A DNA stretch of 64,000 nucleotides from Nitrospirota bacterium (GCA_049325335.1 JBMOMC010000007.1:128170-192169), one strand, 5' to 3'. Shown: positions 3,288-26,122, numbered from the stretch's first letter. Numbers and translations are program-made. The notes: generated by a model from the letters alone, not told the origin.

Positions 3288-3317
3288 ATCTTAATCAAGA
3301 GCGCTCACGGCTGTCAA
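3288..3317 (-). promoter_or_regulatory. candidate sigma70-type promoter for the MerR gene with a palindromic operator in the spacer
   Basis: Minus strand reads TTGACA (3317..3312), an 18-nt spacer containing the perfect palindrome GAGCGCTC (3299..3306), then TAAGAT (3293..3288), about 30 nt upstream of the ATG at 3255. MerR-type promoters typically carry the operator dyad inside a long spacer. Confidence 0.35.
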
Positions 3318-3365
3318 GGAGCGATACAACTTTTTCGGTTTTTGGATGGTTCCGTACGACGGAGA

Positions 3366-7027: not shown

Positions 7028-7043
7028 CTGAGTTCCGGGGCCG

Positions 7044-7733: not shown

Positions 7734-7743
7734 GACGAGGGAC

Positions 7744-8124: not shown

Positions 8125-8175
8125 GTCGGTTTTGTCACCTCCCACCGCCAACGGGCCCGCGGCCCGGTGACGCGC

Positions 8176-9027: not shown

Positions 9028-9098
9028 ACCGTCATCCTTTCACGGGCCCGGAGTATAGCACCGGGCTGTTCAGACCCGCAAGACTCCGACTTCCCCGT

Positions 9099-10184
9099 CT
9101 ATCGATGCGCCCCCGCCATGACCCGTTTGGCGATCTGCTCCGCGATCGCGTGCAGCGGCGCCACCACGTCGACCGCGCCTTCGAGGATCGCCTCCTGCGG
9201 CATGCCGAATACCACAGCGGTTTCTTCAGACTCCGCGATGGTGCCCCCTCCCCCTTGTTTAATTTTGGCCATGCCGCGCCGCCCGTCGTGGCCCATCCCC
9301 GTGAGGATGACGCCCACCAGGTCCGCGCCGAACACCTCGGCCGCCGAGGTCATTAGATCGTCGACGGAAGGCACGTACCGGTCGTCGAGACCCGCCGGGG
9401 TCAGGACCACCTTCACCCTGTCCCCGCACCGCACGAAGGAGAGGTGGTGTCCGCCCGGGCAGATCACGATCTGCCCGGGCCGACACCACTGGTCCGGGCT
9501 CGCCTCGGAAATATCCCACGCGGACAGACGATTGAGTCGCTCGGCGAACGACGCGGTAAAGCCGGCCGGCATGTGCTGCGCCACCGCCACCGCGCACGGC
9601 AGATCCCGCGGCAACGTGGACACGATGGTTTGCAGCGCGGCGGGACCGCCGGTGGATGAGCCGACCGCGACCAGTTTGAGTCGGTCGGGCGCGCCGACCG
9701 CGGGTTTGATGAGGATCGGGTCGGCGGGGCTCACCGCCGCGGCTTTGGCCGCGCGTTCGCATAATCGCACCGGCGAGGCGGCCGCGATCGCGCGCACCTT
9801 CGTCTCCAATTCGCCGCGCACCTTCAGCACTTCCCACGACGCCAGGTGGGTGGGTTTGGCGAGGAAATCCGCGGCGCCCAGTTCCAGGGCATGAAACACG
9901 TTGGAGGCCTCCGACGCCGCGCTGACCACCAAGACCGGCGTGGGCAACGTGTGCATCAACCACCGGAGAAACGCGAATCCGTCCATCCGAGGCATTTCCA
10001 GGTCCAACGTGATGACGCTCGGCCGATATTTATTGACCGCCTGAATCGCCTCCAATCCGTCCGAGGCGGTCCCCACGACCTCGACGCCGGGGACTTCCTT
10101 GAGCATCATGACTATCGCCTGCCGGTAGAACGCGGAATCATCCACCACCAGTACGCGCGTCGGCGTCGCGTCATGCCGCGGCAC
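9099..10184 (-). CDS. cheB: chemotaxis response regulator protein-glutamate methylesterase
   Basis: N-terminal REC (RVLVVDDSAFYRQ...ITLDLEMPRMDG) and C-terminal CheB methylesterase domain (VAVGSSTGGPAAL...VAQHMPAGFT...GMGHDGRRG). Confidence 0.9.
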   Translation of the reverse strand: MPRHDATPTRVLVVDDSAFYRQAIVMMLKEVPGVEVVGTASDGLEAIQAVNKYRPSVITLDLEMPRMDGFAFLRWLMHTLPTPVLVVSAASEASNVFHALELGAADFLAKPTHLASWEVLKVRGELETKVRAIAAASPVRLCERAAKAAAVSPADPILIKPAVGAPDRLKLVAVGSSTGGPAALQTIVSTLPRDLPCAVAVAQHMPAGFTASFAERLNRLSAWDISEASPDQWCRPGQIVICPGGHHLSFVRCGDRVKVVLTPAGLDDRYVPSVDDLMTSAAEVFGADLVGVILTGMGHDGRRGMAKIKQGGGGTIAESEETAVVFGMPQEAILEGAVDVVAPLHAIAEQIAKRVMAGAHR

Positions 10185-11010
10185 GGGACTGCTCCTCCTT
10201 CTGATACACGATATCTCGGTTGAGATGCCGCAGGTTGAACGCGGTGCTGACGTTGATCAATGACTCCGAATGGCCCAAGAGCAGGTACCCGCCCGGGCGC
10301 AATCGGTTCCAAAACATCTCGATCACCCGTTTCTTCACGGGCAGGTCGAAATAAATGATGACGTTGCGGCACAGGATCACGTCCACCCTGGGCACCAAGG
10401 TCGCCCGCTCCGCGTCCGCCAGGTTAAACGCGAAAAAACTGACCATACGTTTGACCGAATCGTTGATACGAAACCCGCTCCCCTCGGCGTGAAAAAACCG
10501 CTCGCGATACTCCGGAGGCGTTGACCGAAACGATGAGGGCGGATACACCCCGCGCCGAGCCGTCTCCAACACGCGCTGGCTGATGTCGCTGGCGACGATC
10601 TCGATGTGCCAGTCCGCGTACTCCGGGTGGTTCGCCAGCGTCATGGCGATGGAATACGGTTCTTCCCCGGTCGACGACCCGGCGCTCCAGATCCGCAGAG
10701 TGCGATCCGTGCGCCGTTTCATCAACCCCGGAAGAATTTCGTTCCGGAGCGCCTGCAGTTGATGGTCTTCCCGGAAGAAATACGTTTCGTGAATCGTCAG
10801 CAGGTCGACGATCACCGCGAATTCTTCGGTCCGCCGCGCGTCGTACTTGAGGAACAAATACAGGTCTCGGAACCCGGACAACCGGAGCCGACGGAGGGTC
10901 TCCTGGAGACGATTTTCCATGAAGAACTTCGATTGGTCGTCCAGCCACACGCCGCAATGGTCATACAACATGTCCCGGAGCAGCTTGAAGACGTCGGCGC
11001 TGAGCGGAAT
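10171..11010 (-). CDS. cheR: chemotaxis protein methyltransferase CheR (start codon uncertain)
   Basis: CheR N-domain (LSADVFKLLRDMLYDHCGVWLDDQSKFFMENRLQETLRRLRLSGF) plus SAM-MTase domain (LRIWSAGSSTGEEPYSIAM...LCRNVIIYFD). No ATG/GTG/TTG lies between the upstream gene stop (~11057) and the conserved N-domain; the nearest in-frame candidates are ATT/ATC, or a GTG about 155 nt inside the upstream gene. Confidence 0.8.
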   Translation of the reverse strand: MPLSADVFKLLRDMLYDHCGVWLDDQSKFFMENRLQETLRRLRLSGFRDLYLFLKYDARRTEEFAVIVDLLTIHETYFFREDHQLQALRNEILPGLMKRRTDRTLRIWSAGSSTGEEPYSIAMTLANHPEYADWHIEIVASDISQRVLETARRGVYPPSSFRSTPPEYRERFFHAEGSGFRINDSVKRMVSFFAFNLADAERATLVPRVDVILCRNVIIYFDLPVKKRVIEMFWNRLRPGGYLLLGHSESLINVSTAFNLRHLNRDIVYQKEEQSRAAA

Positions 11011-11056
11011 TGAGACTTGTTCGATGGCGATCCCCCGTGGTGTGGTGTGTGCCGGG

Positions 11057-13084
11057 CTACGACGCCTCGTCCAACGCCATCGTGAGTTGCTCCACCGCGA
11101 AATGCGCGGACTCTCGAACCACGTGATCCGGATCTTGCGCCGCCAGCTCGCGCAGCCGCGGCAACGCGCGGGTGACCCGCGCGCGACCGAGCGCCACGGC
11201 CGACGCCGCACGAACCCCCCAATGCGCGTGGTCCAACATCGGGATGACCGGTTCCGCGATCTGCTCGCCGCCGATTTCACCCGCGGCCGCGATCGCGGCC
11301 TGTTTGACGTCCGGGTCGTTCGAGGAGAACAGCCGAATCATGGCCGGCAACGCCCCGCGAACCTTGCGCGTTCCCAGCGCGACGCAGACCGCGATTTGAA
11401 TCAATCCGACCGGATCATTCACCAGCAGCAGCAGCGTCTCTTCGATGCCCTCGGCGCCCCGCTCGCCCAACAACCGAATCACCTCGGCGCGGATCCAGAT
11501 ATCGGGATCATGCAACAGCGGCCGAATCAGGTCGTCGATCACGGCATCCCGTCGTCGGGCCAGAATCCGGATCATTTCGAGCCGCACGGTCGGGTCTTCG
11601 TCGTTTAAGGCCACGTGCGCCACGGTTCTCACGTCGCCGCCCAACGACTCCAACGCCGCCAGCCCGGTACGCCGGATCATGGGGTCCGGATCCTTCAGGT
11701 CCAACATCAGGCGGCCGTGCGCCTCGGGCGCTTGAAAGGCGCCGAGTAATCTCGCGGCGTAACAGTGGATCTCCACCGTGGAGCCGTCGAGCAGACCCAG
11801 CAGCCGAGACACCAGGCCGGGGCTCTTGAGCCGCGTTAAGGCGCGGTACGCGGCCTCTTGAACATTCGGGTACGGATCCGCCAACAACTGGAGTAAGGGA
11901 CGGACCCCCAGCGGGTCCGCCAGTTGCCCCAAGGCCGCGGCCGCGGCTTGGCGAACGTGGCCCTCGGGATCTCCCGTGAGTTCGACGAGTCCGTGAACGG
12001 CTTTCCGGTCGCCGATCTCCCCAAGCGCCCGCGCCACGTCTTCGCGCAGTCCGGCCGGGGCTCGCGGGATCACGGCCAATAATTTGGGCACGCCCTCGCG
12101 CTGCATGCGGACACACGCCGCCACCAGTTCCTCCCGACACGATTCGTCGTAGACCGCGGCGAGCGCGGCGATGGCTTGCACGTCGCCCATCCACCCCAAC
12201 ACCGTGATCGCGTTGCGTTTGACCGCCGCGTCGCCGCCAGCGAGGCTGTCCCGAAGGTATCGGCTCACCGGCTCGTCGTAGATTTCGCGCATACGACAGA
12301 TAATCTTGGTTTTCACGTCGGGCGGCATCCGACCGTACAACTCGATCACCGCACGCACGGCCACGTGGCGGACCTTCGACGACCCGAGTCGGATCGCCTG
12401 TGCCAAGGGATTCACCACCCGCCCATCGCCGATCCGTCCGAGCGCCTCCAATGCCGCGCGTTCCAACGTCGGTTTGCCGAGGCACCCGACCAGCGGTTCG
12501 ACCGCCCGCCCATCGCCGATTTCCTGTAAAGCTTTGACCGCGGAAAACTGCAGCAGGGGACGGCCCTGTCGCAACAGATCGGCCAACGGCTCCACCGCCC
12601 TGGGATCCCGCAGTTTCCCCAACGCCTCCACCGCCGCCATCGCCACATTCTCGTCGGTCTGGCCCACCAACCGCACCAGGACCGTGGTCGCGCGCCGATC
12701 ACCGATATCTCCCAGGATATCGACTACGAACTTCTGCACATCGGGTTCAGCGGAGGGCACCGCGGCCAAGAGCGCCGGAACCGCGGCGAGGCCGAAGCGC
12801 ACCAGCACTTCGGCGGCAGCGTTTCGCAACGACGCGTTGTCCGGATCGGCCACCCCCGCGATCAGATGCGGGGCCATGTCCGCACGCCATCCCAACCCGA
12901 CCAAGGCCTCGACCGCGGATTTCCGAACGCGCCACTCCGAGTCCCTGAGCGCGGTCAGCAGATCCGCCACGGCCTCGTACCCGCATCGGGCGAGGTCCGC
13001 GACCGCGGCCACCCGCTCTTCCATCTCGCCGCTCGCCAATCGCGCGCGGCAGGTCGTGACGTCTGACTGATGCGGCTCGGCCAT
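11057..13084 (-). CDS. HEAT-repeat (PBS-lyase-like) protein
   Basis: More than 15 tandem ~30-aa repeats of the form D.xVRxxAxxALGxIGDxRAVxPL. Start taken at MAEPHQ (13084); the ORF is open to 13222 but would then overlap the upstream gene by 119 nt. Confidence 0.7.
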   Translation of the reverse strand: MAEPHQSDVTTCRARLASGEMEERVAAVADLARCGYEAVADLLTALRDSEWRVRKSAVEALVGLGWRADMAPHLIAGVADPDNASLRNAAAEVLVRFGLAAVPALLAAVPSAEPDVQKFVVDILGDIGDRRATTVLVRLVGQTDENVAMAAVEALGKLRDPRAVEPLADLLRQGRPLLQFSAVKALQEIGDGRAVEPLVGCLGKPTLERAALEALGRIGDGRVVNPLAQAIRLGSSKVRHVAVRAVIELYGRMPPDVKTKIICRMREIYDEPVSRYLRDSLAGGDAAVKRNAITVLGWMGDVQAIAALAAVYDESCREELVAACVRMQREGVPKLLAVIPRAPAGLREDVARALGEIGDRKAVHGLVELTGDPEGHVRQAAAAALGQLADPLGVRPLLQLLADPYPNVQEAAYRALTRLKSPGLVSRLLGLLDGSTVEIHCYAARLLGAFQAPEAHGRLMLDLKDPDPMIRRTGLAALESLGGDVRTVAHVALNDEDPTVRLEMIRILARRRDAVIDDLIRPLLHDPDIWIRAEVIRLLGERGAEGIEETLLLLVNDPVGLIQIAVCVALGTRKVRGALPAMIRLFSSNDPDVKQAAIAAAGEIGGEQIAEPVIPMLDHAHWGVRAASAVALGRARVTRALPRLRELAAQDPDHVVRESAHFAVEQLTMALDEAS

Positions 13085-13103
13085 CGCGTCCCTCCCCCCG
13101 CGC

Positions 13104-14174
13104 CTACGCGGCCGCCTGACGATTGCGATTGAGCAATTCGCGCCGAGTCGCCACGAATTGTTCGAGCGTTTGCTGGAACAAATCCGCCGTCGCGGGAAAT
13201 GACGGGTCCCGCCGTTCTTCATAGAGACGCCGCCCTTCGTCGATCTCCGCGCGCAACAACTCGAAAAACGTCCCCTTCACCACTCCCTCGTCCACCTTCT
13301 TCGCGTTATACAGCGCAATGTCGGAAACGATGATGCGGGCCAGGCGCCGCGCGGCCTCCACCACCGGATCGTCGGTCTTGGACGCTGAGGGCGCCGGGGG
13401 TTGGACCGGCGGCATCGACGGTTCCTTGGCGACTGCGGGCGCCGGAGGAACCGTCGGCGCGCTCGGCGGCGCCACGCGCGACGCGGCGGGAGCCGACGGC
13501 TGGGGCCGCGCGCTGGGCGGCGGTACCGGCGCGGGCGCAACCGCTTTTGCGGCAACGGCCTGGGCCTCCGCGACTCGCTCCGGTTGATGGGGTTCGGGCG
13601 ACGGCTCCGAGGCCGAGGCCTCGCGTTCACACAAGGCTTTGACCTTGGTCACCAAATCCGTTTCGATCTGGTGTCGCTCGATGTAGTCGTCCGCGCCAAA
13701 GAGCTGACCCGGTTGGCGCCGGTACCGGTCCTTATTGTGAATCGCCGCGACCAGGATGATTTTCACCCCCGCAGTCGCGGCATTGTTCCGGATGCGCTCG
13801 CACACTTGGAACCCCATAATGTCCGACAGCCCCACGTCCACCAGGACCAACGCGGGCCGCGCGTCACTCACGCGAACCAAGGCGTCCGCGCCGGTGGCCG
13901 CTTCGATGACTTCGAACCCCGCTCCCGAGAGCAACTCGCCGATCAGTTCGCGCGTCGCCTCGCCCTGCAGCGCGACCACCACGCGTTGGCGCTGGTCGTT
14001 GGTCGGCGGCGACGGGGACGTCTCCGGGGCGGCCGCGGCGGCGGGGATCGCAAACGCCTCGATCCTGACCCGCAGCCCGCTCCGACATCCGGGACACGCC
14101 ACCACCGTGTGATCGGCCAGGGACGGGAGCGCGTAGCCGACTCCCGCGCCGCATTGTGCGCAGACGATGTTCAT
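13104..14174 (-). CDS. MJ0042-type zinc-ribbon + degenerate receiver-like domain + Pro/Ala-rich linker + C-terminal domain protein
   Basis: N-terminus [14 protein letters not shown]...[15 protein letters not shown] (CxxC...CxxC). Receiver-like fold ([18 protein letters not shown]...[16 protein letters not shown]...[10 protein letters not shown]) retains the phospho-Asp position but lacks the DD pair, Thr and Lys. Long [19 protein letters not shown]... linker follows. Confidence 0.6.
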
Positions 14175-16402
14175 GGGTTCTCCTTCGTGAGTTTAAAGCG
14201 GGAGACTTGTGCCTCCAGTTCCCTGGCCGCGGACAGCAGGCTGTCGACCGCCGCGGTCGTCCGATTCATCGCGTCCCGATTTTGATGACCGACGCGCCCG
14301 ATCGATGACACGGCGCCGACGATGGCTTCGCTTTCGGTTCGCCGTTGCCGAACGAACTCTTGGACCGTCTTGACCCGTTGGTTCGCGGATTCAATGACCT
14401 GGCTGACTTGTCGGTTCCCCTTGGCGTGTTCGGTCGCCGCGCGGGTCACGCGTTGCGACATCGCACGCGCCTCCTCGCTGACCCGCTCCACGTCCTCGAG
14501 CATGCGCGCCTGCGTGCGCGCCACCTCGATGAGGTGCGCCACCTGCGCGGTGACGGTCTGCATCTCCGCGTTGACCCGTTGCACGCCGCTCATTTGCTGA
14601 TCCGTTTCCCGCGCGATGTCCAAAATTCTCGTCGTGGAACTCTTCGCGCCCTCCAAAATCTTGTCCAACGCCGCCCGCGCGGCGCCCGACACCCGCACGC
14701 CTTCTTCCACACGGCTCGCGCTGTCCGCGATCGCCCGCACCGCGCCCGCGCCCTCGACCTGCAGCGCCGCAATAATGTCGTGGATCTCCTTGGTCGACGT
14801 CGCGGTCCGCTCCGCCAACTCCTTGATCTCGCCCGCGACCACCGCAAAGCCTTTGCCGTGTTCGCCCGCCTGCGCGGCGATGATCGCGGCGTTGAGGGCC
14901 AAGAGATTGGTCTGCTCGGCCACTTCGTCGATCACGCTCAGAATGCTCCCGATCGACTCGGTCCGCTGTTGGAGCCGTTGGATCACGGCCGACGCGTCGT
15001 CGGAAAACGCCTTGATGCGATGGATGCCGTCGATCGTTTGCGCCACGCATTCCTGCCCGTGTCGCGCGTCATCCCCTACGCGGTGTGACAGCTCCACCGT
15101 CGTGTGGATCTCGGCCCGGATCTGGGTCGTGGACTGCTCGATCGAATCCGCCGACGAGGCGGTGTCCGCCGCGGCTTTTGAGAGCACGCCCAACGCCGCC
15201 TCCGCCTGTCGGATCGATTCGGCCAGGATTTTCACCGAGTGTTGGGTGCCGGATGCCGCCCGCGCGTAACCGTCGGCGTCCCGGGCGATTTCCTCGGTCG
15301 ACGCCGTCATCTGCGCCGTCGCCGCGGTGCTCTCCTCGATCATGGTCGAGAGTCCGTCCATCCCGGAGCCGAGTTCCGTAATCGCTTCGTGCAGCTCGGT
15401 CGTGGATTGCAGGGTCGCCTCCACGTGGATCGCCTGCGATTCGATCCCGCTGTGCACCACGGCGGCGTCCCGCGCCAAATCGCGGCCCGAGGCGCCTACC
15501 GTGCGACTGACGTCGGACACCTTCCGGATAATGACCTCCAGCTTGTCCACGAACCGATTGAACCCTCCCGCCAAGTCGCCGATTTCATCGCGCGAGGATA
15601 ACTCCAACCGTCTGGTCAGATCCCCTTCCCCGTCGCTCACGTCGTTGATGCGCTCCACCACCCGATGGAGCGGACCGAACACGCCGCGCCGGAGCGAGAC
15701 CCGCAGCAGCAGCCCCACGATCGTGATGGTGCCGAACGCGCCCCACGCCATGTCGCGTCGATTCGCGCCGACCTCGTTCCACAACTGATCGGTCGCGGTG
15801 GAGATCATGAGGACTCCCCGCAACTTGTGGTCCGAACCGTGACACAGGTAACACCGTTGAAAATTCGGCAACGGCCGCAGGTAGGTCATCACCTCCCGGT
15901 CGTTGATCCGCTCAAAGTAATATTCGTCCTTCGCGTTGAGCGGGTCCGCCAGAATGCGGGTAAAGGCTTCGCGAAACGCCGGCGCCTCGACCCCGGTCGC
16001 GCGATTGGGCGAGACGTTGGGATGATCCGCCACCCACTCGGGGCGAATCGGCACGCGCGTTTTCACCTCTTCAATGGTCTTGAGGTCCATGAACCCCTGC
16101 TCGACGCCCAACCCGTCTTTTCCGCGCACGACCTGGATCCGGACGATTTCCGGCAATTCCTTGAGGTCGTCGAGCAAATGCCGCGCCATATCGGCGCGGA
16201 ACGCCACCATGTCTTTGTCGAACGCCAGGTGCACCGAAGCGGCCAGCAACCCCGCTTTCTCCCGCTCGTGGTTGATCAAATCGTGCCGCATCTTGGTCTG
16301 CAGGATCACGAAAATCGCGACAAACCCGACCACCAAGGTCGCCAACACCAGGGTGATGACCTTCGACGAAAGTTTCCGACCGGACTGGTTCGGCGCGCCC
16401 AT
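14171..16402 (-). CDS. methyl-accepting chemotaxis protein with periplasmic CXXCH (haem-c) sensor domain and HAMP
   Basis: TM1 ([20 protein letters not shown]), a ~190-aa periplasmic domain containing [13 protein letters not shown]2, HAMP, then the MCP signalling domain ([29 protein letters not shown]). Start at MGAPNQ (16402) gives a 1-nt overlap with the cheW stop. Confidence 0.85.
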
Positions 16403-16872
16403 CACGCCACCTCGGACAACACGGCGAATTCCGCGGGTCCCAACACCGCGTCCAAATCCACGACCAGCAACAAGGCGTCCTTGACGCGACAGACGCCTCG
16501 ACACATCGTCCCGCCGTCGGCGTCCGACTTGCGCGCCTCAAAGTCGTCGGCATCCACGTCCAACACATCCGACACGCGATCCACGACCAACCCCAGCAGC
16601 CGCTCACCCAATCGCACGATCAAGATGTGCGCGGGACGCGTGCGCGCGCTCGCGGGGACGCCGAAACGTTCCCGCAGTTCGATCAACGGCAGCGTGGTGC
16701 CCCGAAGGTCCATCAACCCGTCGAGAAACGCCGGAGCGTGCGGCACCGGAACCGGCTCGCGGTAAAACACGATTTCGCGGATCCGTTCGATTTCGGTCAC
16801 GTACGGACGTTCGCCGATCTCCAAACACAGCAGTTTGCGGCGAACGTGCAGCGTTGCCAGCCGTCCCGCCAT
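16402..16872 (-). CDS. cheW: chemotaxis coupling protein CheW
   Basis: Single CheW domain ([23 protein letters not shown]...[21 protein letters not shown]). Stop/start overlaps with both flanking MCP genes. Confidence 0.9.
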
Positions 16873-18986
16873 CAGGCCACCTTGAACCGATTGACCTCGG
16901 AGCGCAGCGTCTCGGCCTGCCGCACCAGTCCGTTCACGACCCCGCTCATTTGTTCCGCGACGGCCGCGCTGTCCTTCGAGACCATTTGAATTTCTTCGGC
17001 CGACTTCATGATGATTTCGCTGCCGCGCCGCTGTTCGCGGACGGCCGCGGCGATGTGTTGCACCCGATCGGTGACGTGTTCCACCGCCTGGGTAATCTGC
17101 TTGCTGCCCTTGGCCTGCTCTTCGGTGGACAACCGCACCTGCCTGGTGATATCCCGCATCCGCTCCGCGGCCTCGCGAATTTGTTCCGATCCCTTGCTTT
17201 GCTCCTGGGTGGCGCGCGAAATCTGATCGACCATCTGGGTGATCTGTCGCATGGACTCGGTCACTTGCCGGATTCCCTTGACCTGTTCGATCGTGGCCAG
17301 CTCGATGCCGCGGGCCATATTGGTGGACTGCGTGGAGCTCTCCAAAATCTTCTTGAGCGCCTCGCCGGCCTCCAGCGCCATCTTCATGCCCTCTTCCACC
17401 CGCACGTACCCGTCTTGAATCGCGGTGACCGCGTCGCGCGACTCCCCCTGCACCGCGCCGATGAGCTGCGCGATCTCCTTGGTGGACACCGAGGTCCGGT
17501 CCGCGAGATTTTTGATCTCATCCGCCACGACCGCGAACCCCTTGCCCTGTTCACCCGCCTGCGCCGCCAAGATGGCCGCATTGAGCGCCAGCAAGTTGGT
17601 CTGTTTGGTGACTTCGTCGATCACGGTCAGGATTTTGCCGATCTGGTCGGACCGTTGACCCAGTTGGTGGATGACGTCGGTGGTCTTTTTGACGGTTTCG
17701 CTGATTTTCTCCATGCTCGCGATGGTCTTGGTCACCGACAACATCCCGATTTCCGACGCCTCGCGCGTCACCCGTTCGGCCAACGAGGCCGACTGCTTCG
17801 CGTTTTGCTCGACTTCCTTCACCGACGCGTTGATCTCGGTCACCGCCGAGGCGGTTTCACCCGAGGCCGTGGACAACAACACCACGTTGCCGGCCACCTG
17901 TTTGATCGAAGCCGACATTTCAATAATGGCCGATGACGTCTCCTCCACCGACTTGGTCAGATCCACAGTGTTGGCCGCCACTTCGCTGATCGCCGCGCTC
18001 ATCTGTAAAATCGAGGACGAGGTGGCTTCCGACGCCGACGAGAGCACCTCGATCCCATCGCCGACCTCCCGCAGCGACGCGTTCATTTCCACCAACGAGG
18101 AGGAGGTCTTCTCCGTGGAAATCGATTGGATGTTGGCGCCCTCCGTGACTTTCCGGCTGTTGCCCGCGATGTGCTCCGACGCGGACGTCACCGCGTTCGC
18201 CGCGTCCTGCACTTTGCGAATCATGGCTTTCAGGCTCGACGCCATTTGATTGAACCCGCTCGCCAACACGCCGATTTCGTCGCGCGACGCGACCTCGATC
18301 GTCTGCGTAAAATCGCCGTCCGCCACGCGCGTGACCACCAACGCCATCCGCTCGATCGGCGCCATGTTCTTGCGCACGAAATACCACATCACCCCCATGC
18401 CGGCGCCGACCGTAAGCACGGTGATCAACACGCTCCACCACATAATGCTCGAGAGCTTCTTTTCCAATTCCCGAGGCGACAACGCCATCACCACGGTACC
18501 GATGCGGGCCTTCCCGCCCGAGCCGCCGGCCATGGCTTCTCCGGTGCTGAACAACACCGGCTCCACCACCATCAACAGCGTCTTGCCGTCCTTCTCCACC
18601 TGTTCGACGAATCCTTCGCTCGCCTGAACCGCCTTCACCGCGAGGGGATCGCTGTCGACTTCCTTACTGAAGTTGGCATCGCTGTGGACCCAGACAATCC
18701 CGCGCCCGTCGAGGATCTTGACGTACGCCACGTCGGTCTCGGTCATGATGCCCTTGATGTAACTGACCAGGCTCGACGAGTCGCCGATCGAAATGCCGTA
18801 CGTGCTGTTGTGGGCCAAGTTACTGGCCAGCGACACGCCGCGTTTGATCAGCGCCTCTTGCAGGAACTGCCCGGTCCTCGCCATCGACACCACGGTCAGC
18901 ACCACGGAGACGCTCAGCAAGAGGAGACTGGTAATGATGACGAACTTAAACCGCAGTCCGAACCGGATATTTCGTCGCTCCAACAT
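16872..18986 (-). CDS. methyl-accepting chemotaxis protein (2 TM, periplasmic sensor, HAMP)
   Basis: TM1 [21 protein letters not shown], a ~150-aa periplasmic domain without Cys, TM2 [25 protein letters not shown], and the MCP signalling domain ([25 protein letters not shown]). Confidence 0.85.
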
Positions 18987-19015
18987 ACGCTCCTCCCCCC
19001 ATACCGTTCATCCCG

Positions 19016-19768
19016 TTAGGCCGCGGCTCGCGCCGACGACGCGTCAACGGCCACGAGCCGCTCCAAATGCAAGACGCCGATCAATCGCTCGCGGTGCCGC
19101 AAGGTCGCGGTGACAAATCCCGCTTCGCGCTCCCCCATGGTCGTGGGCGGCGGACCCAGCGCATCGGCCTCGGCGTTGATGACCTCCGTCACGTGATCCA
19201 CCACCATGCCCACCGGCGCCCCGTCGATCACGACCACCACGATCCGGGACTTGGAGTCGTGGTCCCGCGCCGGCATGGATAATCGGCGACGCACGTCAAA
19301 AATCGGCACGATCGATCCCCGCAGCGAAATGATGCCCATTATGTTCGCCGGCCCTCGCGGGATCGGCGTGATGTCGGTCGGACGAATAATCTCCCGAACC
19401 GAACGAATCCACAGACAGTATTCTTCCGCGTCCAACGTGAACCCTAAAAATTCTTCGACGCGCGCCTCCGGCGCTTCGGAAACCGCCGCGCCGGACGACG
19501 GCTCCGCCGAACCACCGTACGGCGCTTCCACACGCTCCGGGGCCCCGTCCTGGCCATTCATCGGGCCGGCCGGCGGTGGCGCCTCGATCGCGATCGCGAC
19601 CGGCTCCGCAAGCACGGGCGGGTCCGGCTGGGCCGGCGCGGGGACTGACGCTGGTTCGGCCGCTGGCACCGGTTCGGCCACCGTCGTGCGCTCCCGGTTG
19701 ACCGGGCTCGTTGTCGCGCGCGTTCTCCGCCGTGACCGCGATTGGTGTGACGTGCGGGATCGCCTCAC
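19016..19768 (-). CDS. CheW-domain protein with Arg-rich / Pro-Ala-rich N-terminal extension
   Basis: C-terminal CheW fold (EEFLGFTLDAEEYCLWIRSVREIIRPTDITPIPRGPANIMGIISLRGSIVPIFDVRRRL...). The N-terminal ~100 aa are low-complexity. ATGA overlap with the upstream small MerR gene. Confidence 0.75.
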   Translation of the reverse strand: MRRSRTSHQSRSRRRTRATTSPVNRERTTVAEPVPAAEPASVPAPAQPDPPVLAEPVAIAIEAPPPAGPMNGQDGAPERVEAPYGGSAEPSSGAAVSEAPEARVEEFLGFTLDAEEYCLWIRSVREIIRPTDITPIPRGPANIMGIISLRGSIVPIFDVRRRLSMPARDHDSKSRIVVVVIDGAPVGMVVDHVTEVINAEADALGPPPTTMGEREAGFVTATLRHRERLIGVLHLERLVAVDASSARAAA

Positions 19769-20004
19769 GCCGCCTCCTGTCGCACCTTCTCGGCCGCGCG
19801 GCTGACCAGGAATCCTTCATCCGTCAACGCCTTGACCCGCTTGAGGATCCGAACGTCGTGGTCCGTGAATCGGCGGAACAATTTCACCCCGTGGCGTTCG
19901 CTGACCGGCGTCACCACCCCGATCAAGACCCAGTACTCGAGTTGCCGAGGGGACAGCCCGACCTGCCGACACACCTCATTGGGACCGCATAACCCCGTGC
20001 GCAT
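19765..20004 (-). CDS. DNA-binding-domain-only MerR-family protein (79 aa, BldC-like architecture)
   Basis: VCRQVGLSPRQLEYWVLIGVVTPVSERHGVKLFRRFTDHDVRILKRVKALTDEGFLVS is a MerR winged-HTH, about 45% identical over ~60 aa to the 2773..3255 MerR N-domain. No effector or dimerisation domain. Confidence 0.7.
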   Translation of the reverse strand: MRTGLCGPNEVCRQVGLSPRQLEYWVLIGVVTPVSERHGVKLFRRFTDHDVRILKRVKALTDEGFLVSRAAEKVRQEAA

Positions 20005-20017
20005 CTACCGCTCCATC

Positions 20018-20037
20018 ACATCCCACAGGCTTGTGGG
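20018..20037. promoter_or_regulatory. perfect inverted repeat ATCCCACA-N4-TGTGGGAT immediately upstream of the small MerR-like gene
   Basis: Sequence atcccacaggcttgtgggat lies 14-33 nt upstream of the ATG at 20004, inside a 280-bp non-coding gap within the otherwise tightly packed che cluster. Confidence 0.35.
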
Positions 20038-20283
20038 ATCGCACCGCGACTAGCAGCAAGGACCGTGCCGAGGTGCGATCTCCCTAGAGCCCATGGAACC
20101 GCGGAGGGGCGTGACCAGAGGTCGTTACGCGTCGTCGGTTGGGTAACGCGTCACCCGGTGCGTGCCAAAAATTGACGCAATGACCCAAAGACGTGACGGA
20201 GCGGACAGGACGCGGGGTGCGAAGAAACCTTCCTCGGGTCCCCGATCGTCGGGTCCTCGAGGGCAGCACGGAATCAGGCGGGC

Positions 20284-22290
20284 TTAGGCGGCCAGGGGAA
20301 GGGCGGTTGAACGACGGCACACGGCTTCATCGATCAACGCCCCGACGTCGAGCACCAGAATGGTCTTTCGATTCCCCAGTTCAGTGGCGCCGGCAACGCC
20401 GGGGATACCTTGGAGCAGTGAGCCAATGGATTTGATGACGATTTCCTGCTGCCCATAAATCGTATCCACGACCAACCCCAACCGCTTTTCCGCCAACCCG
20501 ACGACGATGATGTACAGGCGGCTGTCCCCGTTCCGGGCCGGCTCGACGCCGAACAGATCGCTAAGCCGCAGGAGCGATAAGGTGTGGTCGCGTAGGTGTA
20601 TGACGGGCCGGCCCCCGATCGTGACCACTTGGCTGGATTCGATCATGACGCTTTCGGACACCGCGCTGATGGGGATCGCGTAGGTCTGCGTCCCCACGCC
20701 CACGATCAACGCCTTGATGATCACCAATGTGATCGGCAGCGTCAACACGAAGCTCGTCCCCTGGCCGAGCTCCGTATCGACCTCAACGATCCCGTTGAGC
20801 TTGGCGATATGCCGGGCCACCACGTCGAGGCCGACCCCCCGCCCGGAGAGTTCGGTCACGGCCTCGGCGGTGGAGAACCCGGGTTGGAAGAGAAAGTCGA
20901 TGATCTCTTTGTTGGTATAGTCCCGGTCCGGCTCCGCGATGTGATTGGCAAGCGCCTTCTCGCGCACTTTCGCCAGGTTCACGCCCGCACCGTCGTCCGA
21001 GACCGTGATGGTCACGGTATGGCCCTTGTGGGCCGCGCTCAGATGGATCGTCCCCACCTCCGGCTTGCCGCGGCGACGGCGTTCCTCGCACGGCTCGATC
21101 CCGTGATCGAGGGCATTGCGGATCAAGTGCAACAACGGATCCGCGATCGCCTCGACCATGGATTTGTCGAGTTTGGTTTCCTCGCCGGACGTCGTGACCT
21201 GAATCTCCTTGCCCAAGTCCCGGGAGATTTTTTTGATCGCGCGCACGGAGCGATCGAACAACTGCGCCACCGGGATCATGCGGATTTCAATCAACCCTTC
21301 CTGCAGCCCGGACACGCGGTGTTCCAAGGCTTGGGCGGCCTTATGTAATTCCATCGCGGGGCCCACCAACCCCCCATTTTGGAGCAGGTCTCGCGCGATC
21401 TGGACGATCACCGACTTGGAGAGCACCAGCTCCCCCAGCATATTCAACAAAGCGTCGAGTTTGACGATGTCCACCCGGATCGTTTGGCTGAGGCTGCGGG
21501 TCGACGGCGAGTCCGATTCACCGGCGGGTGCGGCCTTTGTCGGCGTCGGCTCCGCGCCGCCCAGTTGCACGATGTCGGCGCGATCCTCGGCCAGCAACCG
21601 CGTCAACGCGTCCCGGTCCTGCGCGGTGCCGACCAAAAGCGTAAACGCGATCCCGGCCTCCGGCGACACTCCGGAGCTGGGCAACGTGGAAATCACTTCC
21701 CCCACGCCCTGGAGTTTCGCGGTCAGACTCGACAGGGACTTGTCGAAATCTTCGAACCGGAAACGGACGCGGATCTCGAACAACCGATGGTTGGCCTTGA
21801 TGTTTTCCTGAAGGCGATGTTGTTCGTACTCGGTGAGGACTTGGAGAATTTCGGGATCAACCCCGGACTTCTCGGTGGACGGCGCCGCGGCGGGCGCCCC
21901 GTTCACGGCCTCGCGGAGGCGCGCCGCCAGCCCCGACGTATCCGGCGGCACCTGGTCCGATGACGCGGCGGCGATCAACTGGGCCAACGCCTCGACGCCG
22001 TCGCCCAAGAGATCCGCGAGATTTCGACTCATCCCGAGTTTGCCCATGCGCAGCCGGTCCATCAGGTCTTCCAGCGAATGGGCTAGGTCCGACACCGCGG
22101 TCAACCCCATCACCCCGGACATCCCCTTGAGGGTGTGGGCCGCGCGAAACAACGCGTTGAGCGATTCCGGACTGATCGAGTCGGGCGATTGCTCGATCCG
22201 ATCCAGATGGCGGCGGAGGGTATCGAGGAGTTCGTCGGACTCGGCGAGGAACTCTCGAAGCGTGTCGTCCTTGTTCCGGCGATCCATCAC
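20284..22290 (-). CDS. cheA: chemotaxis histidine kinase CheA
   Basis: P1/Hpt (AAHTLKGMSGVMGL), dimerisation region, HATPase (DHGIEPCEERRRRGKPEVGTIHLSA...DDGAGVNL...GRGVGLDVV) and C-terminal CheW-like P5. No fused receiver domain. Confidence 0.9.
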   Translation of the reverse strand: MMDRRNKDDTLREFLAESDELLDTLRRHLDRIEQSPDSISPESLNALFRAAHTLKGMSGVMGLTAVSDLAHSLEDLMDRLRMGKLGMSRNLADLLGDGVEALAQLIAAASSDQVPPDTSGLAARLREAVNGAPAAAPSTEKSGVDPEILQVLTEYEQHRLQENIKANHRLFEIRVRFRFEDFDKSLSSLTAKLQGVGEVISTLPSSGVSPEAGIAFTLLVGTAQDRDALTRLLAEDRADIVQLGGAEPTPTKAAPAGESDSPSTRSLSQTIRVDIVKLDALLNMLGELVLSKSVIVQIARDLLQNGGLVGPAMELHKAAQALEHRVSGLQEGLIEIRMIPVAQLFDRSVRAIKKISRDLGKEIQVTTSGEETKLDKSMVEAIADPLLHLIRNALDHGIEPCEERRRRGKPEVGTIHLSAAHKGHTVTITVSDDGAGVNLAKVREKALANHIAEPDRDYTNKEIIDFLFQPGFSTAEAVTELSGRGVGLDVVARHIAKLNGIVEVDTELGQGTSFVLTLPITLVIIKALIVGVGTQTYAIPISAVSESVMIESSQVVTIGGRPVIHLRDHTLSLLRLSDLFGVEPARNGDSRLYIIVVGLAEKRLGLVVDTIYGQQEIVIKSIGSLLQGIPGVAGATELGNRKTILVLDVGALIDEAVCRRSTALPLAA

Positions 22291-22658
22291 CCGGACCCGA
22301 TCAACCGTTGGATCGTGGACTGCAGATGTTGGGGCTCGAACGGCTTCTTCACGTATGCGGACGCTCCCAAGTTGAGCCCCCGCCGCACGTCTTCGTCGCT
22401 GCCCTCCGTGGACACGATGACCATCGGGATCGATTTATACTCCGGGTGGTGTTTCACGAAATGCACGATCTCCAGACCGTTGATGTCCGGCATATTGATG
22501 TCGGTGACGATCAGGTCGAGCGCCTGCTGCGGGATGCGTTTGAGGGCTTCGAACCCGTTGGGGGCTTCGATGGTTTCGAACCCCTCCATCTCCTCGATAG
22601 CGGAGACGATCAGCGCGCGCGTGGTGGGCGAATCATCCACCACCAACACGCGTTTCAT
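22287..22658 (-). CDS. cheY: CheY-like single-domain response regulator
   Basis: MKRVLVVDDSPTTR...LIVTDINMPDINGLEI...PMVIVSTEG...AYVKKPF: complete receiver signature. Overlaps the cheA start by 4 nt. The ORF is open to 22676. Confidence 0.85.
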   Translation of the reverse strand: MKRVLVVDDSPTTRALIVSAIEEMEGFETIEAPNGFEALKRIPQQALDLIVTDINMPDINGLEIVHFVKHHPEYKSIPMVIVSTEGSDEDVRRGLNLGASAYVKKPFEPQHLQSTIQRLIGSG

Positions 22659-22698
22659 GTCGGTCCGTTTTTGCACGCGGCTGAGTATAGCATAGGGT

Positions 22699-23895
22699 TT
22701 AAGAATCGCCCGTTCTGGTCCGCTGAATTTGTTGTTGCAACAACGTCTTGCCGAGGGAAACGGCCGCGACGCGAAGAAACGCCTCCAGCCCCCCGGTCTC
22801 GCCGATCGGCGTCTGGTGCGGGAGATTGTCCCCGTACAAGAAGGCGACCACCCGCTCCGCGCTCACGATGGGCGCGAGATAACTTTCCTGCGGCCAGTGT
22901 CCGCCCAGGCGCTCCATGACCATCCGATTGCCGGAGAGATCGGGCCAAGCGCCCTTGAGCGCGGAGCGGCTGTCCGCGACCGCTCTGAACGACGACGCGT
23001 CGGTCAGCGGCACGACGATGGACCGGACCACCTCGTCGGGCGAGCCCTCCGTCACCTCCACGCCGAACTGTCCCCACCCGCCGACCGCGTCGCCTCGCAC
23101 CAAAAAAATGACCGATCGATTCATCAACTCGCCGGCAAACCGCAGCATCATCAGGAAGACGTCGTGGCCGGACACCGCCCCGCCGAGCTCTTCGATCATG
23201 GCCGGCAACAACGATAAATCCTTTCTCGGAATTTCTGCGCGATCCCCCAATACCGCGGCCCCCAACGCGTCGTCCGACACCAGGCCCGCCAGGCTTTCCG
23301 GGTCCGGTGTTTCGATCGCCGGGTGCGACATCGGGGTGGACTCGTCCAGGCCCGCGAACGAGTCCTCGGCGCCGGAGGATTCGTCGAGGACCAGGTCATC
23401 CCCGACTCCGCCCCCGGATTCGTCCTCGAGCCGGGCGCCTTCCAACAGCAGAAACTCGGCGCTGATGCCTGCGTTCATCAACACGCCGTCCTCGGAAAAT
23501 TTCCCCAACGTGAACTGAAAGGTCCCGGTTCGCCAGCCCAGCAGATCACGCACCACGTCGATGATGTGCAGGCGTAATTCGCTCTCCACTTGCTCCGGGC
23601 TCATCGAGCCCATTTCCACCAAGATCGTGCCGATGGGCTTCTTGACGGTGCGGACCTTTTGGATGCCGAGCGCTCGTTCGAGGTCCGCGCGCGTGATCAG
23701 GTTCTTCTGGACCAGCACGTAGCCGAACCGGCTCTTATTGTCGGAACTGGCGTAAGTCACGTTGCCTTGGTTGAAGACCACGCGCCCCATGCCGTCCTTT
23801 TTAATGAGCGTCAACACGCCCGAGCGTTTGCTCAGGTTGATGATTTGAAAAATATCCGGTAAGCCGAGGTCTTCGAGACGACCCTCAAGGCTCAT
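22699..23895 (-). CDS. DUF4388 (PATAN-like) N-terminal domain protein with C-terminal GAF-like region
   Basis: N-terminus LEGRLEDLGLPDIFQIINLSKRSGVLTLIKKDGMGRVVFNQGNV matches the DUF4388/PATAN pattern. The C-terminal ~150 aa look like an alpha/beta sensory fold. Overlaps the purS stop by 4 nt. Confidence 0.55.
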   Translation of the reverse strand: MSLEGRLEDLGLPDIFQIINLSKRSGVLTLIKKDGMGRVVFNQGNVTYASSDNKSRFGYVLVQKNLITRADLERALGIQKVRTVKKPIGTILVEMGSMSPEQVESELRLHIIDVVRDLLGWRTGTFQFTLGKFSEDGVLMNAGISAEFLLLEGARLEDESGGGVGDDLVLDESSGAEDSFAGLDESTPMSHPAIETPDPESLAGLVSDDALGAAVLGDRAEIPRKDLSLLPAMIEELGGAVSGHDVFLMMLRFAGELMNRSVIFLVRGDAVGGWGQFGVEVTEGSPDEVVRSIVVPLTDASSFRAVADSRSALKGAWPDLSGNRMVMERLGGHWPQESYLAPIVSAERVVAFLYGDNLPHQTPIGETGGLEAFLRVAAVSLGKTLLQQQIQRTRTGDS

Positions 23896-24173
23896 GGCCC
23901 CTTGGGTGTGGGCTGGTCAGAGGCCTCGGCGCCGTCGAGCACCTCATAGCGGTAGTCCTCAATGACGGGATTAGCCAAGAGGCGCCGGCACATGTCCTCA
24001 ACCCGTCGTTCCGCGGTGGATCGGTCGGTGGTCCGCAAGTCGATATCGATCAGTTTCCCGATGCGCACGCCGCTCACGTCGTCAAATCCCAATCCGGCCA
24101 ACGAGCGCGCCACGGCGTCGCCTTGCGGATCCAAAATCCCTCGTCGATACGTCACGTAGACCCGAGCCTTCAC
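23892..24173 (-). CDS. purS: phosphoribosylformylglycinamidine synthase subunit PurS
   Basis: MKARVYVTYRRGILDPQGDAVARSLAGLGFDDVSGVRIGKLIDIDL...: PurS family, ~90 aa. Confidence 0.85.
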   Translation of the reverse strand: MKARVYVTYRRGILDPQGDAVARSLAGLGFDDVSGVRIGKLIDIDLRTTDRSTAERRVEDMCRRLLANPVIEDYRYEVLDGAEASDQPTPKGP

Positions 24174-24300
24174 GTCGCCTCCCCGCCCGTCGCGTCCGCC
24201 ACGAAGGAAGGCCGGCCATCACCTCGGCGCAGAACGCAGCTAATACTAACGCACCCGCCCGCAACCGGCAAGGCGGCCCCGGCGAGATGTCGCGGACCGC

Positions 24301-25602
24301 TCACGCGGCGCCTCCGAACACCCGCTGGAAAATCACATCGGTATGCCGAAGAAAATAGCCCGGGTCAAAGCACCCCTCCAACGCCTCCGGCCGGAGGCGC
24401 GCGGCGACTGCGGGATCGGCGCGAACCAAATCCGTAAAGCGCCCTCCCCCGTTCCACGCCCGCATCGCCAACCCCTGGACCAGGGCGTACGCCTCCTCGC
24501 GAACCATGCCCGCGTCCACCAACGACAACATCACCCGTTGGGAATACACCAACCCGCCAGTCTGGTCCAGGTTGCGCCGCATCCGATCCGGATACACCTG
24601 CAGCCGCTCCAGCAGGGTCGCGAACCGATCCAACATGTAGTCAAGCAGGATCGTGGAATCGGGCAGGATAATCCGCTCCACCGAGGAATGCGAGATATCC
24701 CGCTCGTGCCACAGTGCCACGTTGTCCAACGCGGCCTGCACGTTGGCCTTGATCACCCGGGCCAGGCCGGAGATGTTTTCCGACGCGATCGGGTTGCGTT
24801 TGTGCGGCATGCTGGACGAGCCTTTTTGTCCGGCCGCGAAGTACTCTTCGGCCTCTAACACCTCGGTCCGTTGTAGGTGGCGAATTTCCACCGCGAACTT
24901 TTCCAAACTCGCGGCGATCAACCCGATCACGGTCATATACGCGGCGTGTCGGTCGCGTTGAATGATCTGATTGGACACCGGGTCCGGCGCCAGCCCAAGG
25001 CGTTCGCACACCCGGGACTCGATCGCCGGGGGGAGATGGGCGAAGGTCCCCATGCTGCCCGAGAGTTTGCCGACCCGGATCTCTTCCTCCACGTGGTCCA
25101 ACCGCCGCGCATGGCGCGTCACCTCGTCGTACCAAATCGCCAGTTTCAGTCCGAAGGTAATGGGCTCGCCGTGGACGCCGTGCGAGCGGCCGATCATCAC
25201 GGTCCCGCGATGGCGGTGGGCGAGGTCCCGCAGCACCCACCGCAGGCGGGACACGTCCTCGCGGAGGATGGCGGTCGCTTCCACGAGGGTGAGGGCGAGC
25301 GCGGTATCCAAGATATCGGACGACGTGAGGCCTTCGTGGAGAAACCGGCCCTCGGGACCGACGGTTTCGGCCACCGCGTTCACGAACGCCAACACGTCGT
25401 GCTGGGTGGTGCGCTCCAACTCTTCGATCCGGGCCTCGTCCACCTTCGCGTTGGAGCGAATCGCCTCCGCCGCGGCCCGAGGAATTCGCCCGTGCTCCGC
25501 CATCGCGTCGCACGCGGCCAGTTCCACCTTCAGCCACGTGTCATATTTGTGCGACGGACTCCACAGCCCCTTCATGGCGGGCCGACTATACCGATCAATC
25601 AC
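24301..25602 (-). CDS. purB: adenylosuccinate lyase
   Basis: VIDRYSRPAMKGLWSPSHKYDTWLKVELAACDAMAEHGRIP (cf. B. subtilis MIERYSRPEM...) and fumarate-lyase signature GSSSMPHKRNP. Start assigned to the GTG at 25602. Confidence 0.9.
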   Translation of the reverse strand: MIDRYSRPAMKGLWSPSHKYDTWLKVELAACDAMAEHGRIPRAAAEAIRSNAKVDEARIEELERTTQHDVLAFVNAVAETVGPEGRFLHEGLTSSDILDTALALTLVEATAILREDVSRLRWVLRDLAHRHRGTVMIGRSHGVHGEPITFGLKLAIWYDEVTRHARRLDHVEEEIRVGKLSGSMGTFAHLPPAIESRVCERLGLAPDPVSNQIIQRDRHAAYMTVIGLIAASLEKFAVEIRHLQRTEVLEAEEYFAAGQKGSSSMPHKRNPIASENISGLARVIKANVQAALDNVALWHERDISHSSVERIILPDSTILLDYMLDRFATLLERLQVYPDRMRRNLDQTGGLVYSQRVMLSLVDAGMVREEAYALVQGLAMRAWNGGGRFTDLVRADPAVAARLRPEALEGCFDPGYFLRHTDVIFQRVFGGAA

Positions 25603-25621
25603 CGTCCGACCTCCCCACGCG

Positions 25622-26122
25622 TCACACGCCCATGTCCCGCAGACGCTGCTCGATGTGGTGCGGCTGGCACCCTTTCGGCGCCACGAACGCGAGTTCAATC
25701 CCGTTTTGGGATTGCCCCTGCAACCACGCCTTCAAAAACGTCCGCGCCGCGATCACCGGGTCGAAGTGGCCCGCGTGCGCCCCGAACAACTCCACGGCCG
25801 CGACCTTGACCTGCAAGGCTTCCAACACCGGTCGCAGCGCGTCGGCGACCTGATGGAGCACCAGATAGGTATAGTCGGACGCGCGCCCCAACCCCACGCA
25901 CAACACGCGCGGCGTGGAAAACGTGGGCACGGAGAGCAACGCGGTTTCACCGAGGTGACCCTGCACCCGGCCGTCCACGATCAACCGCGAGAGCTTGCCG
26001 CCGGCCAGCCAGTCCACCTGCCCCGCCAGACCGTGCGGCGGTCGCACGTCCTCAAAAAACCCCGTCACCAACACGTCGGCGCAGACCCGCGCCGCGGGGT
26101 CAGCGAGGACCGTCGCCCGCAT
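25622..26122 (-). CDS. stand-alone leucyl-aminopeptidase (M17) N-terminal-domain-like protein; no catalytic domain
   Basis: ADVLVTGFFEDVRPPHGLAGQVDWLAGGKLSRLIVDGRVQGHLGETALLSVPTFSTPRVLCVGLGRASD aligns with the PepA N-domain (ACIVVGVFE...GKPGQTLLL...RILLIGCGKE). The protein ends after ~166 aa. Confidence 0.5.
   Translation of the reverse strand: MRATVLADPAARVCADVLVTGFFEDVRPPHGLAGQVDWLAGGKLSRLIVDGRVQGHLGETALLSVPTFSTPRVLCVGLGRASDYTYLVLHQVADALRPVLEALQVKVAAVELFGAHAGHFDPVIAARTFLKAWLQGQSQNGIELAFVAPKGCQPHHIEQRLRDMGV

Follow-up and report, generated by a model that had tools for sequence, protein, structure and literature searches.

A domain-only MerR-type protein in a Nitrospirota chemosensory cluster and a candidate autoregulatory site upstream of its gene

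INTRODUCTION

Why would a bacterium keep a DNA-binding domain, with nothing attached to it, in the middle of a chemosensory gene cluster? The question is raised by a 64,000-nucleotide stretch of DNA from a Nitrospirota bacterium (GCA_049325335.1 JBMOMC010000007.1:128170-192169), referred to below as the window, which has a G+C content of 64.7%. Within it, a gene for a 79-amino-acid (aa) protein of the MerR type, which we call sMerR for small MerR-type protein, lies between cheA and a cheW-like gene. A preliminary description, made from the sequence alone, proposed that this protein either gives the chemosensory pathway a transcriptional output or regulates its own operon from an internal promoter. 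Nitrospirota include the main nitrite oxidizers, the comammox bacteria, and the manganese oxidizer "Ca. Manganitrophus", and, to our knowledge, almost nothing is known about gene regulation and behavior in this phylum. Here, we compare the locus with its relatives in genomes and metagenomes and propose, with confidence somewhat better than even, that sMerR autoregulates a sigma-54-dependent sub-operon through a dyad element upstream of its gene.

THE sMerR GENE AND ITS UPSTREAM ELEMENTS

The argument turns on the following features, given with their coordinates in the window:

19765..20004, minus strand: sMerR gene, 79 aa, from the open reading frame and its translation, with a match to Pfam MerR_1
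20011..20014, minus strand: Shine-Dalgarno sequence GGAG, 6 nt 5' of the sMerR ATG, read from the sequence
20017..20039, minus strand: operator-like element ATCCCACA-AGCC-TGTGGGAT-GTG, consisting of a palindrome (20020..20039) and a third TGTG half-site
20056..20069, minus strand: sigma-54-type -24/-12 promoter GGCACGGTCCTTGC, GG-N10-GC, predicted from the motif match and its conserved position
20140..20174, minus strand: distal block CAATTTTTGGCA-N17-TACCCA (TTGGCA-N17-TACCCA), from alignment conservation

The gene and its setting stand as first described. The open reading frame begins with an ATG after GGAG, and (A/G)GGAG is also kept at this place in the alignment with loci L001-L003. The GTG of the CheW-domain gene overlaps the sMerR TGA as GTGA, and Pfam domains identify the neighbors on both sides. 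The noncoding gap upstream of sMerR (20005..20283) spans 279 bp and is the only long one in the che cluster, where all other intergenic stretches are 127 bp or shorter. We compared 28 genome loci and 13 metagenome loci containing sMerR; counts out of 29 refer to the genome-locus set for cis elements. Aligned at the start of sMerR, the loci reveal that the gap is a conserved regulatory region made up of three blocks.

The perfect palindrome reported in this gap does exist, as an 8+4+8 repeat ATCCCACA-GGCT-TGTGGGAT (inverted repeat I6), though it lies at 20020..20039 and not at 20018..20037. Taken alone it is unremarkable: at two mismatches or fewer, the window holds four such palindromes against 2.5 expected. 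The sigma-54 motif, too, is at chance level in the window alone (two found, 1.9 expected). The weight of both elements therefore comes from their conserved position across loci and not from window statistics. Every one of the 29 loci, the eight without che genes among them, has the operator-like element upstream of sMerR, with the consensus CCCACA-N3-C-TGTGGG-ATGTG, whose ACA and TG never vary. The 64-kb window holds no second copy: the element scores 33.4 bits with a position weight matrix where the next unrelated site scores 8.4. Its dyad symmetry is maintained through double changes, such as CCCACA/TGTGGG to TTCACA/TGTGAA; these fill 20 cells, compared to 9.3 in shuffles, and none of 500 shuffles reached as high a value. 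Across loci, the element lies 2-39 nt downstream of the -12 box.

Weaker matches to the element occur elsewhere. Second copies scoring 14-20 bits lie ~170-190 bp upstream, by the distal block, in four loci (L015 at 9721, L017 at 9722, L019 at 69-74, and L025 at 2080), and one more weak copy falls within a cheW gene of L002 (13265). The second copies could reflect looping between two sites, or chance. Among 25 matches to the element in metagenomes, about half belong to the same locus type, and 11 or 12 lack sMerR, which by a rough estimate is about the chance number for 18 fixed bases.

An internal promoter in the gap, as the preliminary description suggested, is supported by the sigma-54-type motif. 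The pattern GG[CT]A[CT]N5TTGC, searched up to 400 nt upstream of sMerR, occupies an equivalent position in 22 of 29 genome loci, often as the sole same-strand match in 10-20 kb, and in 12 of 13 metagenome loci (34/42 in total). In the window, GGCACGGTCCTTGC has the GG and GC doublets 10 nt apart, in agreement with the consensus TGGCAC-N5-TTGC(A/T). By the usual geometry of the -12 box, the transcript would start near 20044, which would place the operator at about +6 to +28. A strict scan of the gap for sigma-70 promoters found nothing. In locus L005, an opposite-strand gene lies between cheA and sMerR; sMerR therefore needs its own promoter there. The window also carries, at 2..~740 on the plus strand, a fragment of a sigma-54 enhancer-binding protein with a GAFTGA motif and a C-terminal Fis-type helix-turn-helix. 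Its presence indicates that the genome uses sigma-54; it lies ~19 kb from the promoter, and none of the other loci has such a gene within 10 kb. Bracketing the sigma-54 motif is a perfect 9-bp inverted repeat, GATCGCACC / GGTGCGATC (I1; 20039..20048 and 20069..20087). As a functional site we rejected it: only the window has it, and even L001, 90% identical, does not.

The distal block is kept in the alignment of the window with L001, L002, and L003, while its flanks and spacer diverge. Its general form is TTGnCn-N17/18-TAC(C/A), following a T-run and lying 100-139 nt upstream of the -24 GG. A pattern chosen after inspection of the data, TTT[TA]G..N16-19..TAC at -100 to -139 from the GG, was found in 23 of 33 loci, where the background rate is 0.006 per 120 nt. 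Two short repeats lie within or beside the distal block:

20127..20133 and 20146..20152, plus strand: two ACGCGTC copies, the second in the spacer of the distal block

These repeats and their 12-bp separation had been reported correctly, with positions (~20128..20153) that needed correction. We considered them as an operator or enhancer and rejected the idea, as they are not conserved in L001-L003, including L001 with its 90% identity. It is unlikely that the ACGCGTC copies form a functional site by themselves.

A PROPOSED MODEL OF AUTOREGULATION

How might these elements work together? In the model that we favor, sMerR would be the first gene of a sub-operon with its own promoter, comprising sMerR, the cheW-like gene, mcp, cheW, mcp, a gene for a protein with a zinc ribbon, a receiver, and a RomX-like domain (ZnF-REC-RomX-like), a HEAT-repeat gene, cheR, and cheB. 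Transcription would begin in the 279-bp gap at the sigma-54-type promoter, as judged from its conservation. As a dimer or higher oligomer, sMerR would bind the 16-23-bp CCCACA-N4-TGTGGG(ATGTG), over or just past the transcript start, and binding would feed back on its own operon, most simply as repression. The distal block, ~100 bp upstream, is a candidate enhancer for a sigma-54 activator and/or a second, sigma-70-like promoter. We infer the pairing of sMerR with the element, and the feedback, because the two strictly co-occur in che and non-che contexts, the dyad covaries, its orientation can be reversed (see below), the site is unique in the window, and the repressor CvkR sets a precedent. 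Autoregulation via the palindrome, as first suggested, is plausible: no locus has sMerR without the element, whether che genes are present or not.

Several points weigh against this model. Another protein could be the binder of the element, and we know of no precedent for a sigma-54 promoter with a MerR-type regulator acting downstream of it. The site is a dyad, and sMerR is without a known dimerization element. GlnR and TnrA dimerize on DNA, and BldC oligomerizes through its winged helix-turn-helix (wHTH) domain alone; by analogy, the third TGTG half-site may reflect oligomerization of such a kind. The palindrome is degenerate in the clade of L011, L012, L013, L016, L018, and L021. Asymmetries between its arms are of the G-U type in 15 cases versus the A-C type in 9, which does not discriminate DNA from RNA, and we set this test aside as indecisive. 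Seven of the 29 genome loci lack the sigma-54 motif. The L005 clade (L005, L007-L009, L014, and L047) is without it; there, the element is directly followed by TGTGCTAnACT, an extended -10-like box, such that the element ends 1 nt before TAnACT. Finally, the loci are phylogenetically related, and the counts are not independent. For the same reason, we discarded covariation of protein and operator as evidence: operator types do track protein clades, but shared ancestry predicts the same.

THE PROTEIN AND ITS FAMILY

Is sMerR a DNA-binding protein? The match to Pfam MerR_1 (PF13411) covers residues 9-75 with an E value of 4.5e-11 and 43.1 bits, above the cutoff of 21.6. This places sMerR in the MerR family and not among the excisionases, the assignment that the preliminary description had named as fatal to its view: the excisionase/HTH_17 profile gave no match at E ≤ 0.1, and no integrase-type context was seen, as in every locus the surrounding genes belong to che and pur. 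An AlphaFold2 model built with 40 homologs (predicted local distance difference test score, 93.3) has helices at residues 8-15, 19-27, 48-62, and 67-78 and strands at 34-38 and 41-46. This is a complete MerR wHTH (a1-a2-b1-b2-a3-a4) and nothing beyond it. Thus, sMerR shares with canonical MerR proteins the N-terminal wHTH with its two-strand wing and a3-a4, as seen in the model and by Foldseek. The chain stops at residue 79, directly after a4, and so has neither the antiparallel a5 coiled coil nor the C-terminal effector domain of those proteins.

The family is narrow and, in the databases searched, confined to Nitrospirota. All 28 sMerR loci in species-representative genomes are from this phylum, including "Ca. 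Manganitrophus" and Nitrospira. The 148 homologs listed in a search were all short (54-138 aa), with Nitrospirota as the only organism named, and an identical 79-aa protein is on record from a Nitrospirota metagenome-assembled genome (MAG). A profile search of 1.84 billion representatives returned just 10 clusters at E ≤ 1e-30. Within the family, conservation is strong (RQLEYWvLIG, HG.K, and LTDEGflVSRA in 40 homologs). The protein is basic, with little or no variation in RQLEYW of the recognition helix and in the wing Lys. A single cysteine, Cys12 in helix 1 (19969..19971, minus strand), is invariant in the 40 homologs and could have a structural role or act as a switch responding to redox state or metal.

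Among the next-nearest relatives, a wHTH of the sMerR subtype forms the N-terminal domain of GGDEF-like or PAS-GAF proteins; this domain therefore serves as a DNA-binding output module. We also looked for a "Rosetta stone" fusion of sMerR to CheW and rejected this idea, as the longer relatives carry GGDEF-like, PAS-GAF, or VTT domains and not CheW, REC, or RomX. The window encodes a second MerR protein, of 160 aa (2773..3255), to which sMerR had been described as ~45% identical; the identity is actually 40% over 50 residues. The gene of this larger protein has a classical MerR-type promoter (3285..3320, minus strand), TTGACA and TAAGAT with an 18-nt spacer containing GAGCGCTC, an architecture unlike that of the sMerR gene. 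In canonical MerR operators, the dyad lies within a sigma-70 promoter whose spacer is overlong (19-20 bp), whereas at sMerR it lies 16 nt downstream of the sigma-54-type -12 box.

GENE NEIGHBORHOOD AND THE CONSTANT PARTNER

Which genes keep company with sMerR? The immediate neighbors of sMerR and the other features of this region are as follows:

20284..22290, minus strand: cheA (Pfam Hpt, H-kinase_dim, HATPase_c, and CheW), last gene of a purS-DUF4388-cheY-cheA unit
19016..19768, minus strand: CheW-domain gene with a low-complexity N terminus (Pfam CheW, E 4.8e-33)
13104..14174, minus strand: RR2, with zinc ribbon, receiver, Pro-rich linker, and RomX-like domain (Pfam Response_reg; match to PDB 8zna)
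20231..20260, minus strand: GC-rich hairpin after the cheA stop (repeat D1), a possible weak terminator

All genes of the region are on the minus strand. In the 5' to 3' direction, purB, purS, DUF4388, cheY, and cheA precede the gap; sMerR, the CheW-domain gene, mcp, cheW, mcp, RR2, HEAT, cheR, and cheB follow it; and beyond cheB are genes for a GAF protein and a CheY-like protein and then purQ, purL, and purF. In the stretch 3366..25698 (minus strand), the whole che cluster is therefore nested in a purine biosynthesis operon, flanked by purS and purQ; this arrangement is kept across Nitrospirota MAGs. The hairpin after cheA could be a weak terminator, on weak evidence: its fold is not above shuffles (z = 0.64), L001 has a different hairpin there (z = -1.46), and a terminator scan of the gap found none.

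Among the genome loci, sMerR is inside the same che cluster in 20 of 28, with cheA on one side and the cheW-like gene on the other in all 14 loci for which both flanks are available. The other eight (L004, L011, L020, L022-L024, L026, and L027) have sMerR without che genes. What sMerR always has is a ZnF-REC protein homologous to RR2, encoded downstream in the same direction in all 21 loci that extend far enough. Thus, the constant partner of sMerR is the ZnF-REC protein and not the che genes. In 17 of these 21 loci, there is a RomX-like domain, in up to four copies. In RR2, this C-terminal three-helix domain matches RomX of Myxococcus (PDB 8zna, E 1.3e-11). The preprint on the RomX structure mentions a ZnF-REC-RomX-like fusion and leaves it uncharacterized.

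This comparison weakens the idea of sMerR as a transcriptional output for the che pathway, because eight of 28 loci are without che genes and the constant partner is a ZnF-REC protein, usually with RomX-like domains. RR2 combines RomR-like and RomX-like parts in one chain, which suggests a Frz-like polarity output in Nitrospirota, and the presence of this partner points to an output of the polarity/GTPase type and not a transcriptional one. No mglA or mglB was found among the window genes scanned. One could picture a split one-component or response-regulator system with sMerR as its DNA-binding half, in which the ZnF-REC-RomX-like protein, phosphorylated by CheA, would bind sMerR and supply or withhold dimerization on the dyad, so that a Frz-like polarity pathway would report directly to the sigma-54 promoter. 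We regard such a system as decidedly improbable; the CheA phosphorylation step would apply only where che genes are present. We know of no description of a chemosensory transcriptional output through a MerR-type protein, or of MerR-type control of a sigma-54 promoter.

Several loci show further variations. L011 has the order purB-purS-sMerR-RR-purQ-purL-purF, with no che genes at all. The inserted opposite-strand gene of L005 (8619..9800, minus strand) encodes 393 aa, porin-like as judged by eye only; it is shared by the L005/L007/L009 clade, where the gap extends to 1.5-2.2 kb, and L005 also has a REC-GGDEF gene (10348..11271) directly after sMerR. Nitrospira-type loci repeat the RomX-like domain three to four times in their RR2 homolog (L020, 10297..12636). 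At the head of the che genes in the window, the DUF4388 (PATAN-type) protein (22699..23895, minus strand) matches the NCBIfam motif for MshE-related cyclic di-GMP binding (NF053729, E 4e-11). The HEAT/PBS-lyase-repeat protein (11057..13222, minus strand; 721 aa) has NblB and CpcE as its best NCBIfam matches and is kept in all che-type loci; we take it to be reminiscent of Cpc7 of the Myxococcus Che7 cluster.

RELATION TO KNOWN SYSTEMS

The nearest solved relatives of sMerR by sequence and fold are CvkR, GlnR/TnrA, CueR, MtaN, CarH, and RacA. Foldseek gives template-modeling (TM) scores of 0.75-0.80 to CvkR, GlnR, CueR, MtaN, and CarH; for CueR, MtaN, CarH, and SoxR together, the range is 0.74-0.80. 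The nearest structures are of MerR-type domains bound to DNA. BldC of Streptomyces had been put forward as the only architectural parallel, which is incorrect: GlnR/TnrA, RacA, CbpM, and the N-terminal domain of CvkR are likewise of the MerR wHTH type, lack the canonical coiled coil, and are better matches.

CvkR (Alr3614, PDB 7xn2) is the best match by both sequence (E 5.7e-6) and structure (TM 0.80), with a recognition helix of the RRQLQYW type in common. CvkR represses by binding a palindrome with ACA/TGT cores, AnnACATnATGTnnT (PMC9938897). In contrast to sMerR, CvkR has ~150 aa, with its own dimerization and putative effector domains, and acts on sigma-70 promoters of a cyanobacterial transposon (type V-K CAST). 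The two are 21% identical, and only the N-terminal 72-79 residues align. Lacking the C-terminal domain, and with no CAST genes nearby, sMerR falls outside the CvkR subfamily.

GlnR and TnrA of Bacillus and Staphylococcus are likewise small MerR-type wHTH proteins without a coiled coil (TM 0.75-0.78). Their dimers form on DNA at palindromes, and they are controlled in trans by glutamine synthetase. However, they have N-terminal dimerization residues and a C-terminal tail that binds glutamine synthetase, both absent in sMerR, and the half-sites of their target (TGTNA-N7-TNACA) point the other way from those of the sMerR element. The NCBIfam TnrA profile did not match sMerR.

At 68 aa, BldC is close to sMerR in size and is likewise MerR-like and domain-only; BldC-like proteins are reportedly widespread in bacteria (PMC5859096). 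BldC binds head-to-tail on AT-rich direct repeats and controls a developmental regulon, whereas the element by the sMerR gene is GC-rich and dyadic, with a single additional half-site in direct orientation. The proposed likeness in sequence fares poorly as well: NCBIfam NF033787 is unmatched (E ≤ 0.01), BldC is not in the top 50 structures, and the identity is 28% over 50 aa by BLASTP against a manually entered BldC sequence.

The layout of the gap can be compared to that of glnAp1/glnAp2 of Escherichia coli, where a sigma-70-like promoter/enhancer block also lies ~100-125 bp upstream of a sigma-54 promoter. The sMerR gap differs in having no recognized NtrC-type sites, no activator encoded in the cluster, and an extra operator-like site downstream. 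Similarly, RR2 resembles the Frz/RomR-RomX module of Myxococcus xanthus in its RomR-like receiver, Pro-rich linker, and RomX-like three-helix domain, and the che cluster is of the nonflagellar type, with HEAT-repeat and DUF4388 proteins. However, the module described in Myxococcus has no MerR-type protein, and the window genes scanned do not include MglA or MglB.

ALTERNATIVE READINGS

Could the palindrome act as RNA? In this alternative, the sigma-54 transcript would begin with a stem-loop, formed by the palindrome, that affects mRNA stability or translation, with sMerR binding elsewhere or not at all. We consider this unlikely. The centroid fold does contain an 8-bp stem with a tetraloop (-12.1 kcal/mol), which a start near 20044 would put at about +6, the double changes described above preserve pairing, and G-U pairs are in slight excess. 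However, the element as a whole is asymmetric, and in L033, L037, and L051, all 23 bp are inverted, while the promoter and the gene keep their orientation. This argues for a double-stranded DNA site and not an RNA hairpin. In six loci (L025, L018, L021, L012, L016, and L013), the element is just 2-14 nt from the -12 box; the left arm would therefore fall outside the predicted transcript. The -10-like box of the L005 clade comes after the element. Conservation goes beyond pairing to the bases themselves, and the distance to the start codon ranges from 9 to about 100 nt. Neither the fold of the whole leader (z = 0.27, not above shuffles) nor a search of Rfam with the gap and its flanks, unmatched at E ≤ 1, favors a structured RNA.

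A second alternative concerns the protein. Built on the MerR fold, sMerR could be a protein-binding adaptor in the manner of CbpM with CbpA and its J-domain, acting on the ZnF-REC-RomX-like protein or on CheA/CheW, while some other regulator occupies the palindrome. The constant linkage to the ZnF-REC gene and the translational coupling to the CheW-like gene would fit such a role, and CbpM itself is matched weakly (NCBIfam E 0.002; Foldseek 3ucs, TM 0.72). CsoR of P. putida, reportedly a DNA-binding repressor that contacts CheA (PMC11978298), offers a precedent. However, the residues of the recognition helix and wing are the most conserved part of the family, the top matches by sequence and structure are DNA-binding domains, and the same wHTH subtype is the sole DNA-binding module of the GGDEF-like and PAS-GAF fusions. 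Among the best 150 relatives, none is fused to CheW, REC, or a RomX-like domain. This leaves the adaptor role quite unlikely.

Least probable, and in our view very unlikely, is that sMerR is a pleiotropic regulator like BldC, spread head-to-tail on direct repeats genome-wide with the che site as one target among many: the domain-only architecture (PMC5859096), the direct TGTG-N3-TGTG repeat within the element, and the weaker second copies in L015, L017, L019, and L025 would suit it, but the BldC profile is unmatched, BldC is outside the top 50 structures, there is no second site in the 64-kb window, BldC repeats are AT-rich (AATTNNNNC), and the metagenome matches without sMerR number, by a rough estimate, about what chance would give.

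CONCLUSIONS

None of the parts of this locus is of a new kind. Its domain-only MerR-type protein, putative autoregulatory dyad, predicted sigma-54 promoter, and nonflagellar che cluster each have known counterparts. In the literature searched, we came upon no account of a MerR-type gene in a Nitrospirota che cluster, nor of the sMerR family, its fixed place at the operon head, an operator downstream of a sigma-54 promoter, or the invariant pairing with a RomR/RomX-like fusion. In all, the module is compact and conserved across the phylum: a 23-bp site, a sigma-54 promoter, a 79-aa protein, and a RomR/RomX-related partner. If sMerR merely represses itself, the setting would be unusual but the operon leader an ordinary autoregulated one. 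If sMerR does act at a sigma-54 promoter, the range of MerR-type regulation would be wider. And if sMerR proves to be controlled by the RomX-like response regulator, polarity signaling would be tied to transcription.

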